A stretch of 6,800 bases of DNA from a virus. Taxonomy: Duplodnaviria > Heunggongvirae > Uroviricota > Caudoviricetes. The notes beneath the pieces are model-generated. The model was not told where the DNA came from. It was given only the letters and a program-made list of their open reading frames with translations, and made no database searches. Both the position numbers and the translations under genes were made by a program. Of this stretch, positions 1-6,800 are shown piece after piece. The stretch's first letter is position 1, and every line of letters starts with the position of its first letter. Location: the IMG/VR virus record IMGVR_UViG_2740892422_000007. One strand, 5' to 3'.

Positions 1-94
1 AGCTGAACAGGAGGGACAGCTGATAGAAACAGAAGCCACTGGAGCACCTCAAAAACACCATCATACACTAAATCAGTAAGTTGGCAGCATCACC
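1..94 (-). mobile_element. IS1 terminal fragment (left-end inverted repeat plus first 13 codons of insA); element continues leftward out of the window
   Basis: Bases 1-94 are the exact reverse complement of 6707-6800 (94/94). The motif GGTGATGCTGCCAACTTACTGAT matches the IS1 left terminus as I recall it. The minus strand of 1-39 reads GTG-initiated VASVSISCPSCSA, the InsA N-terminus. Identity stops exactly at 94/95. Confidence 0.85.
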
Positions 95-656
95 GCCATT
101 CAATATCCGGTGCAGTTGATGTATCAACACGGTTCAGCAACACCCGATACTTTTTCCAGGCTTCCAGCAACAAGGTTTCTTCCTCCGTTGCGATCTCCAG
201 ATCCACAGCATCCTGAAGCGGCGCTATATGCTCACTGGCTATCTGCATCAGGCTGTTTTTTGTTTCTTCCGCCTCCCGGATCCGGAACAGTTTTTCTGCT
301 TCCGTATCCTTCACCCAGGCTGTGCCGTTCCACTTCTGATATTCCCCTCCCGGCGATAACCAGGTAACATTTTCCGGTAACGGACCGAGTTCAGAAATAA
401 ATAACGCGTCGCCGGAAGCCACGTCATAAACCGTTTTACCCCGATGATCTTCAACGAGATGCCACGATGCCTCATCACTGTTGAAAACAGCCACGAAGCC
501 TGCCGGAATATCTGGCGGTGCAATATCGGTACTGTTTGCTGGCAGACCTGTATGAGGCGGAATATATGCGTCACCTTCACCAATAAATTCATTAGTTCCG
601 GCCAGCAGATTATAAATTTTTATGGTCCGTGGTTGTTCACTCATTCTGAATGCCAT
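90..656 (-). CDS. tfa: Tail fiber assembly protein Tfa (lambda-like), 188 aa, 3' end truncated by IS1
   Basis: ORF-track translation [48 protein letters not shown] matches lambdoid Tfa proteins from memory. The start overlaps the stf stop (TAATG on the minus strand at 654-658). The last native codon is W (96-98); the final R codon (93-95) and TGA stop (90-92) are supplied by the IS1 end. Confidence 0.88.
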
Positions 657-896
657 TACGCAAGCCTCACAATATAGTTAAATGCGATGTTTTTGACGGT
701 GTTTTCCGCGTTACCAGCAGCGTTAACGGTGATGGTATGTCCATGTGAACCAATCGCAACGGAGTGCGTATGAGCACCAATACCGACAGTATGTGCGTGT
801 GCACCTGCGCTTGCAGCAGTACCCGATACAGAGTGCGTATGAGCGCCTGCAGAAGAAGTGTTAACACTGTATTTAGAATAATCAGGTGATCCACTT
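656..896 (-). pseudogene. stf: Side tail fiber Stf, C-terminal ~80 codons only; 5' portion deleted
   Basis: The C-terminal 80 residues of track ORF 656..1132 read [81 protein letters not shown], with the repeated G(A/S)H(T/A)H motif and a terminal [11 protein letters not shown] typical of lambda Stf. The upstream 78 residues of that ORF are an out-of-frame read across the terminase fragment. No start codon or RBS exists for this fragment. Confidence 0.8.
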
Positions 897-1799
897 CCAG
901 ATCCCGGTCTTTTCGCAGATATAACGGGCATCAGTAAAGTCCAGCTCCTGCTGACGGATGACGCAGGCATTATGCTCACAGAGATAAAACACGCTGGAGG
1001 GATCATCCGGCATCCATTTGAGGCCAAACGGCGTCTCTTTGTCGCCAAATTTAAGGTACTGCTCCTTCCCGCAGTGCGGGCAGGCAACATGAAAACGCAT
1101 AAAATGCGGGGATTCACTGGCTGCACGCTCAATCTGGCAGGTGCCTCTCACTTTGGGCGTGGAGCCACGGATGGATTTTGGCCAGACAGAGCCTTCAATA
1201 CGCTTATCGCCCAGGAACGTCGGAGAGCCTTCCTGTTCAATATCCTCATCAAAGGCAGCAAGTTCATCATAACCCGCCACATCCACTGACTTTTCACGGT
1301 AGTTTTTTGCCGCTTTACCGCCCAGGCACCAGAAGCCACGCCCATTGGTGAAACGCTTCATGGTGAGCGTGTTATCCCGGTGCTTTTTGCCATACCACGG
1401 GGCCAGCGCCAGCAGCGAAGGAATATCACGGATGGTCGGCTCAACGTGGGTTTTCATAAAGTTCTCGGCATCACCATCCGTCGGCAACCAGATAAGTGTG
1501 TTGCGCTGCTTATGCTCTATGAAGTAGGCATAAACACCCAACAGCATTTTGGAATAACCAACACGGGCAGACTTCACCACATTCACCTCGCGGATGTAGT
1601 CGCTGCCCATCGCATTCATGATGGCCCGCTGAAAGGGCAGTGTTTCCCAGCGCCCTTCCTGGTATGCGGATTCTTTCGGGAGATAGTAATTGGCATCCGC
1701 CCATTCAACGGCGGTCTGTGGCTCCGGCCTGAACAGTGAGCGAAGCCCGGCGCGGACAAAATGCCGCAGCCTGTTAACCTGACTGTTCGATATATTCAC
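882..1799 (-). pseudogene. A: Terminase large subunit gpA, N-terminal 301 codons fused to 4 junk codons (KWIT) and a stop; nuclease and portal-binding C-terminal domains absent
   Basis: Translation MNISNSQVNRLRHFVRAGLRSLFRPEPQTAVEWADANYYLPKESAYQEGRWETLPFQRAIMNAMGSDYIREVNVVKSARVGYSKML is near-identical to lambda gpA from memory. Similarity ends after ...YICEKTGIW (codon 301, about base 897). Full-length gpA is about 641 aa. The 5' end overlaps nu1 by 26 nt, as in lambda. Confidence 0.88.
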
Positions 1800-2319
1800 T
1801 CAGCAACCCCGGTATCAGTTCATCCAGCGCGGCTGCTTTGTTCATGGCTTTGATGATATCCCGTTTCAGGAAATCAACATGTCGGTTTTCCAGTTCCGGA
1901 AAACGCCGCTGCACCGACAGGGGGATCCCGTCGAGAATACTGGCAATTTCACCTGCGATCCGCGACAGCACGAAAGTACAGAATGCGGTTTCCACCACTT
2001 CAGCGGAGTCTCTGGCATTTTTCAGCTCCTGTGCGTCGGCCTGCGCACGCGTAAGTCGATGGCGTTCGTACTCAATAGTCCCTGGCTGGAGATCTGTCTC
2101 GCTGGCCTGCCGCAGTTCTTCAACTTCCCGGCGCAGCTTTTCGTTCTCAATTTCAGCATCCCTTTCGGCATACCATTTTATGACGGCGGCAGAATCATAA
2201 AGCACCTCATTACCCTTGCCACCGCCTCGCAGAACGGGCATTCCCTGTTCCTGCCAGTTCTGAATGGTACGGATACTCGCACCGAAAATGTCAGCCAGCT
2301 GCTTTTTGTTGACTTCCAT
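1774..2319 (-). CDS. nu1: Terminase small subunit Nu1, 181 aa, apparently full length
   Basis: Translation MEVNKKQLADIFGASIRTIQNWQEQGMPVLRGGGKGNEVLYDSAAVIKWYAERDAEIENEKLRREVEELRQ... matches lambda Nu1 over its whole length apart from a few substitutions (from memory). Length and the 26-nt overlap with A are as in lambda. Confidence 0.92.
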   Translation of the reverse strand: MEVNKKQLADIFGASIRTIQNWQEQGMPVLRGGGKGNEVLYDSAAVIKWYAERDAEIENEKLRREVEELRQASETDLQPGTIEYERHRLTRAQADAQELKNARDSAEVVETAFCTFVLSRIAGEIASILDGIPLSVQRRFPELENRHVDFLKRDIIKAMNKAAALDELIPGLLSEYIEQSG

Positions 2320-2560
2320 TGTTCATTCCACGGACAAAAACAGAGAAAGGAAACGACAAAGGCCAAAAAGCCCGCTTTCAGCACCTGTCGTTTCCTTTCT
2401 TTTCAGGGGGTATTTTAAATAAAAACATTAAGTTACGACGAAGAAGAACGGAAACACCTTAAACCGGAAAATTTTCATAAATAGCGAAAACCCGCGAGGT
2501 CGCCGCCCCGTAACCTGTCGGATCACCGGAAAGGACCCGTAAAGTGATAATGATTATCAT
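2320..2560 (-). other. cos region: cosB with Nu1-binding R-element repeats, cosN, and the right-end/cosQ side
   Basis: It lies immediately upstream of nu1. The lambda 12-nt cohesive-end sequence GGGCGGCGACCT is present on the minus strand at 2497-2508. Perfect 14-bp inverted repeats GAAAGGAAACGACA (2345-2358) and TGTCGTTTCCTTTC (2386-2399) resemble cosB R elements, and a third CGTTTCC-type element sits near 2440-2452. A 15-bp palindrome TGATAATGATTATCA is at 2545-2559. Confidence 0.8.
2497..2508 (-). other. cosN cohesive-end core (GGGCGGCGACCT on the minus strand)
   Basis: Exact 12-mer match to the lambda cohesive end as recalled, about 190 nt upstream of the nu1 start codon, which is the lambda spacing. 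Confidence 0.75.
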
Positions 2561-2707
2561 CTACATATCACAACGTGCGTGGAGGCCATCAAACCACGTC
2601 AAATAATCAATTATGACGCAGGTATCGTATTAATTGATCTGCATCAACTTAACGTAAAAACAACTTCAGACAATACAAATCAGCGACACTGAATACGGGG
2701 CAACCTC

Positions 2708-2941
2708 ATGTCAACGAAGAACAGAACCCGCAGAACAACAACCCGCAACATCCGCTTTCCTAACCAAATGATTGAACAAATTAACATCGCTCTTGAGCAA
2801 AAAGGGTCCGGGAATTTCTCAGCCTGGGTCATTGAAGCCTGCCGCCGGAGACTGTGCTCAGAAAAAAGAGTTTCTTCTGAAGCAAACAAAGAAAAGAGTG
2901 ACATTACTGAATTGCTCAGAAAACAGGTCAGACCAGATTGA
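2708..2941 (+). CDS. Small ribbon-helix-helix-like DNA-binding protein, 77 aa, hypothetical
   Basis: Track ORF MSTKNRTRRTTTRNIRFPNQMIEQINIALEQKGSGNFSAWVIEACRRRL... has a basic N-terminus, a short strand-like NIRFP, then two helix-like segments, which is the Arc/MetJ/CopG pattern. Fold assignment is by eye only. Sits 42 bp upstream of, and on the same strand as, the DUF1398-like gene. Confidence 0.55.
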   Translation: MSTKNRTRRTTTRNIRFPNQMIEQINIALEQKGSGNFSAWVIEACRRRLCSEKRVSSEANKEKSDITELLRKQVRPD

Positions 2942-2998
2942 AGCAATTTAGATAATCGTGCAGACTACGCCCCCTCATATCACATGGAAGGTTTATCT

Positions 2999-3409
2999 AT
3001 GGATCAGGTAGTCATTTTTAAACAAATATTTGATAAAGTTCGAAACGATTTAAACTATCAATGGTTTTATTCTGAGCTAAAACGTCACAATGTCTCACAT
3101 TACATTTACTATTTAGCCACAGAGAATGTTCATATTGTATTAAAAAATGATAATACAGTGTTATTAAAGGGCCTAAAAAACATTGTGTCTGTCAAATTTT
3201 CAAAGGATAGGCATCTTATAGAAACGACCTCTAATAAGCTGAAATCCAGAGAGATCACATTTCAGGAATACAGAAGAAACCTTGCTAAAGCAGGAGTTTT
3301 TCGGTGGGTTACAAATATCCACGAACAAAAAAGATATTACTATACCTTTGATAATTCATTACTATTTACTGAAAGCATCCAGAAAACTACACAGATCTTA
3401 CCACGCTAA
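2999..3409 (+). CDS. DUF1398-like prophage protein (YbcV/YdfO-like), 136 aa from the ATG at 2999; track ORF begins at an upstream in-frame ATG at 2984
   Basis: Track ORF 2984..3409. The second ATG at 2999 is preceded by GGAAGG 9 nt upstream; the first ATG has no Shine-Dalgarno. Position next to cos/nu1 and a 136-aa length fit the YbcV/YdfO family from memory; family assignment not verified. Confidence 0.65.
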
Positions 3410-3418
3410 ACCATAACG

Positions 3419-3447
3419 TCCGGCTTCTCTCACTCCTGAGCCGGACT
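3419..3447 (+). terminator. Candidate stem-loop between the convergent DUF1398-like and Gns genes
   Basis: GTCCGGCT ... AGCCGGAC 8-bp inverted repeat with a 13-nt loop, 10 bp after the DUF1398-like stop. The downstream T-run is weak (TGCATTGGTTT). Confidence 0.3.
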
Positions 3448-3560
3448 GCATTGGTTTAATAAAAACCATCAACAATTGTGATTTAGATATTCGGAACCAT
3501 TCAAATATAACAAAACCCCGTAAAAACGAGGTTTATGGATAAATTTTATTATTGAATACA

Positions 3561-3734
3561 TCAGATTAAATTAATCTTGACATCATAGCTTTCAAGACCC
3601 GTCATTTTTTCCCGTGCGGTAAACTGAATACTGGTAACTTCTTTCCCGGTCTTTTTCTTAAGTTCAATAATTTTTTTTGTTATATATTCAGAAATATCTG
3701 CTTCTGCTTTTATTTTTAAGTTTTCAATATTCAT
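3561..3734 (-). CDS. Gns-family small protein (GnsA/GnsB-like), 57 aa; absent from the supplied ORF track
   Basis: Hand translation of the minus strand: MNIENLKIKAEADISEYITKKIIELKKKTGKEVTSIQFTAREKMTGLESYDVKINLI, then TGA at 3561-3563. Start ATG at 3732-3734 is preceded by AAGAGGAAA. Length and the REKMTGLESYDVKI segment match GnsA/GnsB as recalled. Confidence 0.7.
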   Translation of the reverse strand: MNIENLKIKAEADISEYITKKIIELKKKTGKEVTSIQFTAREKMTGLESYDVKINLI

Positions 3735-3782
3735 CATTTCCTCTTTTAGTCTGTTATGACTTTCCAGTTACACAGTAAGTCG

Positions 3783-3811
3783 ATTATATGGTGCAAACGT
3801 GTAAAAGATAA
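3783..3811 (-). promoter_or_regulatory. Candidate sigma70 promoter for the Gns gene
   Basis: Perfect TATAAT on the minus strand (plus 3783-3788), with a weak -35 TTATCT at 17-bp spacing (plus 3806-3811), about 45 nt upstream of the Gns start. Confidence 0.35.
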
Positions 3812-4982: not shown

Positions 4983-6006
<1,024 letters not shown>

Positions 6007-6010
<4 letters not shown>

Positions 6011-6318
6011 AGATATTTATGATGAGGACGCTCGTGCTTATTGGCAGGATTTTCAATCTTAAAGGAGTACTGATGCTGCAGATAAGACTCAACTTTTTCT
6101 GACAATTTTTCTGCTACTTCCAGGAAGACTTGCCGGACGCTCCTTCTGGCTGCTGCCTCATAAAACTCCAGCGCAGCTCCTTCAACACGGTCCATGGCGA
6201 CATCCAGGTCAAAAATTTCACCGTCAAAGCGTTCTTTGTCCTGTAAGGCTACAGTTACCGTAACTTTATTCTCAAAATTACGGACTCCTTTCACAACCAG
6301 TTCATAGTCTTGAGTCAT
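6007..6318 (-). CDS. DUF1327-like prophage protein (YdfR-like), 103 aa, function unknown
   Basis: Track ORF with strong RBS GAGGAGAG upstream of the ATG at 6316-6318. Its stop overlaps the endolysin start (ATGA at 6007-6010). Length and position between holin and endolysin match ydfR of Qin from memory; acidic, no transmembrane segment. Confidence 0.7.
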
Positions 6319-6322
6319 TGGA

Positions 6323-6538
6323 TTACTCTCCTCTCGCAGCCTTACGCCTGTCTTCTTTAATCTTGAAATAAAGATTTGTCAGATACGTCAGCAGGCCAAA
6401 AACCAGGCTACCCAGCACACCGATTGCAGCCCACTGTGACGGAGTTACTTTATCGAGTAACTGCAATGCCCAGAAACCAGCATTACCCGCCGATGTGCCA
6501 TAGGCAACACCTGTTGTTAACTTATCCATTGATTTCAT
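6323..6538 (-). CDS. S: Class II pinholin (S21-like) with dual-start motif, 71 aa (68 aa from the second start)
   Basis: Real start is [71 protein letters not shown]. Two in-frame ATGs at 6536-6538 and 6527-6529 are separated by K-S, RBS GGGGTGAGG lies upstream, and there are two transmembrane segments with a basic C-terminus. The track ORF's 25-residue N-terminal extension is a run-on, not coding. Confidence 0.85.
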
Positions 6539-6706: not shown

Positions 6707-6800
6707 GGTGATGCTGCCAACTTACTGATTTAGTGTATGATGGTGTTTTTGAGGTGCTCCAGTGGCTTCTGTTTCTATCAGCTGTCCCTCCTGTTCAGCT
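6707..6800 (+). mobile_element. IS1 terminal fragment (left-end inverted repeat plus first 13 codons of insA); element continues rightward out of the window
   Basis: GGTGATGCTGCCAACTTACTGAT... begins at 6707. The 94 bp are the exact reverse complement of bases 1-94. GTG-initiated VASVSISCPSCSA reads on the plus strand from 6762. Confidence 0.85.

Follow-up and report, generated by a model that had tools for sequence, protein, structure and literature searches.

Results

Genes and sites beside cos

The open reading frame list and a profile search identify the window, by which we mean the whole 6,800-nucleotide stretch of DNA analysed, as a segment of a lambdoid prophage with the following features.

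1-94 and 6707-6800: inverted IS1 ends that bound the Qin segment here
90-656, minus strand: tfa
between tfa and the terminase A fragment: tail-fibre remnant
882-1799, minus strand: terminase A, 5' fragment
1774-2319, minus strand: nu1
2344-2455, minus strand: cosB region between cosN and nu1, with three R-type repeats (AGAAAGGAAACGACA / TGTCGTTTCCTTTCT / AAGAACGGAAAC) and inverted repeats I1 and I2
2497-2508: cosN cohesive-end sequence AGGTCGCCGCCC (reverse complement GGGCGGCGACCT), read from the sequence
2532-2538, minus strand: cosQ, AGGACCC (reverse complement of GGGTCCT); the phage 434 record annotates cosQ at the matching position (locus 24-30)
2546-2564, minus strand: Fur-box-like sequence GTAGATGATAATCATTATC, 16/19 to consensus, from a motif scan
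2606-2638: palindrome ATCAATTA-N17-TAATTGAT (lambda 48373-48405), a candidate operator
2708-2941, plus strand: ynfO, 77 aa, YlcI/YnfO family (DUF3950), from Pfam, NCBIfam, the RefSeq name and the AF2 model; the predicted ribbon-helix-helix (RHH) core covers residues ~12-50 (AF2, conserved core), and the C-terminal tail is variable
2999-3409, plus strand: ydfO, 136 aa, DUF1398, from Pfam, 2HH8 identity and the RefSeq CDS
2984-3409, plus strand: longer alternative of ydfO, from an ATG at 2984, 141 aa
after ydfO, minus strand: gnsB, ynfN and cspI, then the lysis cassette

A preliminary description of this DNA had placed a 77-aa ORF at 2708-2941 on the plus strand and a second ORF of 141 or 136 aa on the same strand 42 or 57 nt past it, both adjoining cos and opposite in strand to nu1, as well as a palindrome, TCAATTA-N17-TAATTGA, at 2607-2637 with its right arm ending 70 nt before the ynfO ATG; all of these placements proved exact. 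The gap between the genes is 42 nt if ydfO starts at 2984 and 57 nt if it starts at 2999, and the second is probably the real start, since RefSeq annotates the 136-aa form and a GGAAGG Shine-Dalgarno sequence lies at 2986-2991. The neighbour of the pair, gnsB, carries the annotation addiction-module toxin.

Lambda base 48502 corresponds to window position 2509. The three cosB repeats are the terminase R sites established for lambda cosB (R3-I1-R2-R1; PMC4669245). The palindrome sits 68-100 bp beyond cosQ, the packaging-termination subsite, and lies outside cos as defined, a region of ~200 bp made of cosQ, cosN and cosB (PMC4669245). Phages 21, phi80 and HK225 and Stx1 phages agree with the window for just the initial 51-61 nt outside the cohesive end, a stretch that leaves out the palindrome, and because these other lambda-like cos phages share so little of the spacer, we do not count the palindrome as part of cos.

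A candidate Fur box close to the consensus lies beside ynfO and its lambda counterpart. The site contains a perfect palindrome of its own (TGATAAT-G-ATTATCA, 2545-2559, I6); 0.01 matches to the Fur consensus at this level are expected per window, and any match at all appeared in 1 of 200 shuffles. Position 2552 within it is variable among relatives, and a literature search found no paper linking Fur with ynfO.

Identity and distribution of the two genes

It is virtually certain that the two genes are the named E. coli genes ynfO and ydfO of a Qin-type lambda-like prophage; the preliminary description recognised neither this named pair nor the lambda right end. YnfO matched Pfam DUF3950 at E 2.7e-21 and 75.6 bits (curated cut-off 25) and NCBIfam NF041551 (YlcI/YnfO family) at 3.3e-09 and 36.6 bits (cut-off 30), and by passing these curated cut-offs it belongs to the YlcI/YnfO family. 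The second protein had been described as DUF1398-like, and this was borne out by a match to DUF1398 (PF07166; YdfO/YbcV/YcgX) at 1.7e-46 and 157.5 bits, well over the cut-off of 22 and across the full domain (profile positions 1-119 of 119), and by identity at 140 of 141 residues to PDB entry 2HH8, 'ydfO protein from Escherichia coli'.

Many E. coli chromosomes carry the 1231-bp locus at 100% identity, with ynfO and ydfO as the RefSeq gene names, and at least 80% of the 1.2-kb locus is present in almost half of the complete E. coli genomes (2479 of 5426). The best-matching genome has the Qin order pinQ, tfaQ, terminase fragment, nohA, ynfO, ydfO, gnsB, ynfN, cspI, rzpQ, rrrQ, ydfR, essD, and in it an IS1A element begins at the match of the window's last 94 nt. 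The Qin prophage of E. coli K-12 has essentially the same genes, with nohA, gnsB, ynfN, cspI, rzpQ, rrrQ and ydfR as shared neighbours, and differs in that inverted IS1 ends bound the segment in the window.

The locus also corresponds to the right end of phage lambda, next to cos. Window positions 2509-2710 are 100% identical to lambda 48301-48502, which covers the spacer from cohesive end to start codon, palindrome included, with the ynfO start at lambda 48303 on the complementary strand. The right-end set of lambda consists of a YlcI-like ORF (~48109-48303, complement), gp79, gp78 and bor, and ylcI-ybcW-ybcV of DLP12 is a set of the same kind. Lambda's YlcI-like protein is 98% identical to YnfO over residues 1-54, the predicted RHH core, and has a different C-terminal tail; gp78, a YbcV-like DUF1398 protein, is 79% identical to YdfO; and lambda has ~560 bp extra, with the opposite-strand gp79, between the small gene and the DUF1398 gene. 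Lambda-like records annotate a 64-aa 'YlcI/YnfO family protein' followed by opposite-strand gp79, gp78 (DUF1398) and bor, and in the lambda records NC_001416 and J02459 no feature is annotated under the small ORF. The ynfO-ydfO pair is already known as an object, and no functional characterisation of it was found in the literature searched.

YnfO resembles ribbon-helix-helix proteins

The description of the 77-aa protein as RHH-like found support at the level of the fold. The AF2 model of YnfO, with pLDDT 71-85 over residues 11-50, has an extended segment at 13-18, a helix at 19-32, a turn at G33-N36 and a second helix from 37, which is the RHH order of an N-terminal strand and two helices with a short glycine-containing turn; the protein was modelled as a monomer, and the ribbon is not seen paired. 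The G-x-N-F-S turn and the N-cap are conserved in the family alignment. The top 50 Foldseek matches in the PDB were nearly all RHH proteins, superposing at 1.7-2.4 A over 35-38 columns and including Arc, CopG, NikR, MazE-N, ParD, VapB, KacA, CopA_SO and NikA, with no single match significant (best E = 0.86), as expected for ~40 residues.

A sequence-profile search of the PDB with the YnfO family returned no relatives, and pairwise hhalign of YnfO against Arc and Mnt found no significant similarity. At a probability of 2.7%, hhalign set the NIRFP of YnfO in register with NLRWP of Arc, which aligns T12, N14 and R16 with Q9, N11 and R13, the base-contacting positions of Arc. Clean divergent members of the family share the core IRFP..L.e.I...NFSAWV.eAC..kL and vary in their tails. 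The family has 120 representatives at E <=1e-3 in 1.8 billion proteins, many of which are corrupted lambda DNA; frameshifted lambda right-end copies on ~3.5 kb contigs and lambda sequence in unrelated 'genomes' were left out by hand. A tblastn match in a Pasteurella phage was disregarded, as it runs antisense to an annotated repressor gene. By its model YnfO is RHH-like at the fold level, and it is very probably an RHH DNA-binding regulator that would dimerise and bind DNA.

Operator-like repeats in island-borne relatives

Forty divergent homologues (38-57% identity) came from Salmonella, Klebsiella, Serratia, Xenorhabdus, Pectobacterium, Proteus and others. About 25 of them sit between an opposite-strand primase operon and an integrase, a setting that is the backbone of a satellite or island. 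Upstream of the gene, such island-type loci repeat a palindromic unit of their own 3-4 times, at fixed offsets near -100, -76 and -30; examples of the locus-specific unit are:

TGTGCGCACA: loci L227 and L248
TGTTTAAACA: loci L218, L219 and L252
TGTGTAAACA: locus L220
GGTGCACATACACC: locus L240

TGT-N4-ACA, a motif picked after seeing the data, occurs at 3.57 per kb upstream, compared with 0.22 per kb in the remainder of these loci (P ~1e-35). By a motif-free measure, exact repeats of 9 nt or longer are present in 14 of 37 upstream regions, 11 of these with P <= 0.01. Between Klebsiella and Rahnella the three sites are identical at 30 of 30 positions against 53% for the rest of the spacer, and between Xenorhabdus and Morganella again at 30 of 30 against 65% outside. 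Directly next to the -30 copy is a TATAG(T) -10-like element, and a conserved CGTCAA (TTGACG on the other strand) adjoins one upstream copy, an arrangement that suggests control over both divergent promoters. Strand residues 12 and 14 and the core of the site tend to change together (YKG with T/GTAA; KKN or KKG with GCGC; KKH with GTTC or GTTA), a covariation drawn from few independent lineages. These patterns are good circumstantial evidence that DUF3950 proteins are operator-binding regulators, in which case the repeats would be bound by the DUF3950 protein encoded beside them rather than by some other factor.

The palindrome upstream of ynfO

The palindrome exists as first described and is slightly longer, its arms being 8 bp (ATCAATTA/TAATTGAT, 2606-2638) where 7 bp had been noted; it extends imperfectly to 13-nt arms (11/13) around a 7-nt spacer. 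Its proposed role as an autoregulatory site fared less well. Statistically the palindrome is marginal (P ~0.05 for 8-bp arms, 0.18 motif-free). Perfect arms of at least 8 bp with a spacer of up to 30 arose in 4.7% of dinucleotide shuffles of the 199-nt spacer and arms of at least 7 bp in ~20%, inverted repeats whose arms reach 7 bp or more number 25 in the whole window, and under the motif-free 'longest repeat' statistic (P = 0.18) the spacer region is unremarkable. Elsewhere in the window the arm 8-mer, allowing up to one mismatch, has 6 matches against 10.5 expected, which is no enrichment.

Marginal statistics of this kind fit an explanation in which the palindrome is a chance product of AT-rich DNA, or the site of some other factor, and YnfO, if it binds DNA, acts elsewhere in trans on prophage, satellite or host genes. 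We regard this as a serious possibility, if at less than even odds. Natural variants without an intact palindrome are consistent with it: in L135 foreign DNA, with an end resembling an IS1 terminus, lies inside the left arm, in L027 homology is lost left of ~2641 and the palindrome is absent, and ynfO is kept in both. The Stx-phage homologue, which has the identical RNIRFPNQ recognition strand, has no copy of the motif within 160 nt upstream. The arm unit of the window is not self-palindromic, unlike the island-type operators, and neither a third copy at -30 upstream of ynfO nor a copy near the likely promoter was found; no sigma-70 consensus promoter was detected in 2320-3800, where inspection by eye gave just weak candidates. 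Against chance stands the invariance of the arms in all 31 alignable lambda-like variants, yet these relatives are 93-100% identical, too alike to tell arms from flanks, and 2590-2700 as a whole is equally invariant. The sole positive argument for the palindrome, noticed after the fact, is that its arms, which start at -102 and -77 from the ynfO ATG in lambda and the window alike, fall within 2 bp of the island-type -100 and -76, with a spacing of 25 bp compared with 23-24 bp. We keep the palindrome as a tentative candidate for the YnfO operator, doubtful as it is, and autoregulation through it as possible and weakly supported.

A packaging role, in which YnfO would bind the palindrome or DNA near cosQ and modulate cos recognition, packaging termination or competition with satellites, appears improbable to us. 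It draws on the position of the DUF3950 gene where lysis and packaging genes meet, both in lambda and Qin, with their Nu1/A terminase, and in Stx phages, whose HNH-TerS-TerL system is unrelated, on two satellite relatives that are genuine fusions of DUF3950 to the N-terminus of a small terminase (Terminase_2, E = 1.6e-11 and 1.7e-06; both translate correctly) and on capsid-forming satellites reported with YlcI/YnfO genes (PMC13612085). The position of the palindrome outside cos and its absence from phages 21, phi80 and Stx1 speak against such a role, as does the lack of packaging genes within 6 kb of most divergent homologues; the orientation of the gene, antisense to the late operon, also sits awkwardly with a late function.

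ynfO and ydfO do not form an obligate pair

In all likelihood ynfO and ydfO are independent genes and not a toxin-antitoxin or defence pair. The preliminary description had pointed to the layout of toxin-antitoxin and accessory two-gene modules, a suggestion that did not survive comparison with relatives. Of the records in a phage collection, 155 matched YnfO in tblastn and 43 matched YdfO. In phage 434 bor comes immediately after the DUF3950 gene and DUF1398 is missing. An Stx2 phage lacks DUF1398 as well: its DUF3950 gene stands by itself, with the divergent HNH-TerS-TerL packaging genes 41 bp away. In lambda gp79 lies between the two genes. Neither DUF1398 nor Nu1 or gpA was found within 6 kb of any of the 40 divergent homologues, and a Pfam census of 39 immediate downstream ORFs of these homologues yielded AlpA (5), integrase (3) and assorted others, with DUF1398 in 0 of 39. 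The steady co-occurrence and adjacency that mark type II toxin-antitoxin genes are absent here, the pairing not being conserved across relatives. In tblastn, YnfO and the lambda protein are homologous up to residue 54 and no further, and a mosaic joint therefore lies inside the 3' end of ynfO; the RHH core stays with cos and the downstream content is exchangeable.

A toxic or defensive nature of the genes also went unsupported: PADLOC-DB 2.0 had no family matching YnfO or YdfO at E <=1, above the Pfam cut-off YdfO matches DUF1398 and no toxin family, and the YdfO structure 2HH8 is a single chain. A 233-aa YnfO-YdfO 'fusion' (P0122, 761 members) was rejected, the junction codon being a TGA read as Trp by other-code gene callers; ynfO, ydfO and a 37-aa upstream ORF happen to share one reading frame. 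The ynfO-ydfO junction (2900-3000) contains no terminator and no significant RNA structure. Because the genes lie on the same strand with a 57-nt gap and no terminator, they are probably co-transcribed in the Qin-type layout, as a local arrangement and not as a conserved operon.

Overexpression of YdfO has been reported to raise oxidative-stress resistance, and ydfO to be induced 12- to 116-fold by an ionic liquid (PMC4077768). It responds to DicC overexpression (PMC11430063). The paralogue in DLP12, ybcV, is PdhR-dependent, and the site responsible lies between it and the divergent gene ybcW (PMC7660256). In a paper on phage resistance of APEC, ydfO was lost in just one listed mutant. Since its sequence has no signal peptide and no membrane or hydrophobic segment, YdfO is probably soluble and cytoplasmic; two existing labels, the legacy 'envelope protein' and the PHROG 'head protein', found no support here. 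The AF2 model of YdfO is poor (pLDDT 51), and 2HH8 was matched by sequence only (TM 0.36-0.39, rmsd 12.5 A).

Discussion

A probable stand-alone regulator with cargo

We favour, with a probability of about 0.6, the reading that this Qin-type locus combines separate accessory genes, a stand-alone RHH regulator and a non-toxic cargo gene. What was observed is the identity of both genes, an RHH-like fold for YnfO, a pairing that is not obligate and, in the island-borne relatives, operator-like repeats; the reading builds on these. YnfO would dimerise through its N-terminal strand (T12-N14-R16 in ..TTRNIRFP..) and act as a transcriptional repressor or regulator, and both genes would be transcribed from a promoter in the cosQ-ynfO spacer. 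Binding to the palindrome, the best available operator candidate, would be the weakest step. YdfO would be non-toxic, stress-induced cargo that some phage lineages carry downstream of the regulator. The direction of ynfO-ydfO opposes late-operon transcription, as does that of bor, a lysogen-expressed moron (PMC7067206), and it seems reasonably likely that the two genes are co-transcribed here against the late operon, in the manner of lysogen-expressed morons such as bor; this pair, too, may be expressed in the lysogen.

A toxin-antitoxin, abortive-infection or other two-component module, with YnfO as antitoxin or regulator and YdfO as effector, would suit the frequency of RHH proteins among type II antitoxins, the antitoxins among the top fold matches (MazE, ParD, VapB, KacA), the order of a small gene and a larger one on the same strand across a short gap, and the prophage accessory region beside gnsB with its toxin annotation, but it is very improbable in view of the unconserved pairing in phage records, 434, Stx2 and divergent loci, the opposite-strand gene that intervenes in lambda and in DLP12-type phages, the PADLOC and DUF1398 results and single-chain structure given above, the artefactual fusion, the reported protective effect of YdfO overexpression (PMC4077768), and the fact that YnfO is least conserved in its C-terminal tail, where antitoxins bind toxins, a tail that has been exchanged between lambda and Qin.

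Significance

In itself the finding changes little, as two named E. coli y-genes and the lambda right end have been met again. What modest value it has lies in directing attention to the small protein, probably a genuine RHH regulator that has never been characterised despite its presence in the best-studied phage and in almost half of the complete E. coli genomes, and the operator-like architecture of its island-borne relatives makes the function of YnfO easy to test. A far wider claim, which we think unlikely, is that DUF3950 (YlcI/YnfO) proteins are unrecognised RHH master regulators of enterobacterial mobile elements and that lambda carries an overlooked cos-adjacent member. If this were true, DUF3950 proteins would bind 3-4 locus-specific palindromic operators at the divergent promoters of integrase-primase islands and satellites, with beta-strand residues 12 and 14 setting operator specificity in an Arc/Mnt-like switch. 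The overlooked lambda member, unannotated in the reference record, would have operator halves at -102 and -77, and it could control lysogen-expressed cargo (gp78/YdfO, bor) or mediate cross-talk between phage and satellite.

Comparison with known systems

Type II toxin-antitoxin operons such as ParDE, MazEF, VapBC and KacAT resemble this prophage locus in layout, with a small gene for an RHH-type protein ahead of a larger same-strand gene. Unlike them, this locus has a partner gene that is not conserved and belongs to no recognised toxin family, a small protein whose C-terminal tail varies, and a second protein, YdfO, that is tolerated on its own (PMC4077768).

The likeness is closer to P22 Arc and Mnt and to plasmid CopG, small RHH repressors of mobile elements that YnfO resembles in size and in strand-helix-turn-helix order, with its N-terminal xNxRxP strand aligned, at low probability, in register with that of Arc. 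YnfO has no significant sequence similarity to any of them, and its DNA binding is predicted. The immI region of Arc and Mnt has a divergent promoter region with several palindromic sites, and the island-type relatives of YnfO are comparable to it in this respect, whereas the window's own protein has one weak candidate site. By analogy, the locus would work most like a small repressor gene of the Arc/Mnt/CopG type with an unrelated cargo gene downstream.

Sequence context of ynfO and ydfO

The 37-aa ORF listed below, ynfO and ydfO (2579-3409, plus strand) share one reading frame and are parted only by single TGA codons, and gene callers that read TGA as tryptophan therefore produce a spurious 233-aa protein; the cluster of these ynfO-ydfO fusions in the protein database holds 761 sequences. 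The features concerned in the window are:

2546-2564 (lambda about 48447-48465), Fur-box-like sequence, agreeing with the E. coli Fur-box consensus GATAATGATAATCATTATC at 16 of 19 positions
2579-2692, plus strand, 37-aa ORF spanning the inverted repeat at 2606-2638, hypothetical in some lambda-like records
3561-3737, minus strand, gnsB, labelled by Pfam and RefSeq as a GnsA/GnsB toxin of a toxin-antitoxin system

The Fur-box-like sequence lies between cosQ and the inverted repeat, which the preliminary description had proposed as a possible autoregulatory site for the ynfO product. It contains a perfect palindrome, TGATAAT-G-ATTATCA, and is statistically stronger than the inverted repeat, because only about 0.01 matches this good are expected by chance per window. 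Most relatives carry another base at position 2552, within this sequence, and a literature search found no paper connecting Fur with the cosQ-ynfO locus. Also found was a third exact copy of the repeat arm, ATCAATTA, in the lambda-like phage O276 (locus L001, 370-377), near the end of the coding sequence of the ylcI-like gene, the lambda-type counterpart of ynfO. Lambda-type phages carry this copy in a 3' portion of the gene that is specific to lambda, and it is missing from the window, where ynfO has a different 3' end.

The ynfO-ydfO pair had been likened to toxin-antitoxin modules. The genes gnsB and ydfO are convergent, with a terminator-like hairpin belonging to gnsB at 3534-3513, and if the window holds any toxin-antitoxin-related gene, it is gnsB and not ydfO.

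Relatives of the DUF3950 and DUF1398 families

Protein and genome searches returned hundreds of apparent homologues that consist of lambda right-end DNA at 97-100% identity, frequently with frameshifts, in contigs of about 3.5 kb or in genome assemblies from taxa with no relation to the phage hosts, among them Streptomyces, Cohnella, Pedobacter and Arcanobacterium. The most likely source is lambda DNA used as a sequencing control and carried over into the data, and such entries make both families seem more diverse than they are.

Island-type DUF3950 genes, divergent homologues located between a primase operon and an integrase (loci L213-L254), are preceded by three or four copies of locus-specific palindromic units of the type TGT-N4-ACA or GGTG-N6-CACC (for example L227 5890-6000, L248, L218, L252 and L240), at offsets of about -100, -76 and -30 relative to the start of the gene's coding sequence. 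The TGT-N4-ACA unit, a motif picked after the data had been seen, was enriched 16-fold upstream of these genes relative to elsewhere in the same loci. In a footprint comparison the sites were identical at 30/30 positions, whereas sequence outside them was 53-65% identical. Directly beside the -30 copy is TATAG, which resembles a -10 element, and the opposite strand carries TTGACG, an architecture that looks like a divergent-promoter switch of integrase-primase islands. Differences in the core of the sites seem to go along with differences in those residues of the DUF3950 protein that are predicted to read the DNA.

In two further loci, a DUF3950 domain is joined to about 50 residues from the N-terminus of a small terminase subunit (TerS; Pfam Terminase_2):

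L171 (E. coli CP027459.1), 6001-6363, DUF3950-TerS fusion
L170, 4714-5103, DUF3950-TerS fusion

Both fusions are in-frame and genuine, and both genes adjoin an integrase gene in a satellite-like island, whose other products include a D5-type primase, a TerS of the island's own and a capsid protein. The L171 island is located within a Stx-like prophage; its neighbours there are a TerS gene that is truncated, an HNH gene and another gene for a DUF3950 protein.

Boundaries of the Qin segment

1-94 and 6707-6800, inverted copies of an IS1 terminus, at both window ends
882-1799, minus strand, truncated large terminase subunit gene
656-1132, minus strand, tail-fibre C-terminal remnant

The right-hand terminus agrees with the first bases of an IS1A element annotated elsewhere, and of 5426 E. 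coli genomes 5418 contain the terminus sequence. Since the termini are inverted, the Qin segment has an IS1 copy on either side, the two being oppositely oriented; the two junctions occurred together in none of the complete E. coli genomes of the collection. The large terminase subunit gene stops after about 305 codons and is then fused to the tail-fibre remnant and tfa. This joint is the deletion typical of Qin, in which head and tail genes are lost and cos, nu1 and the accessory genes are kept intact.
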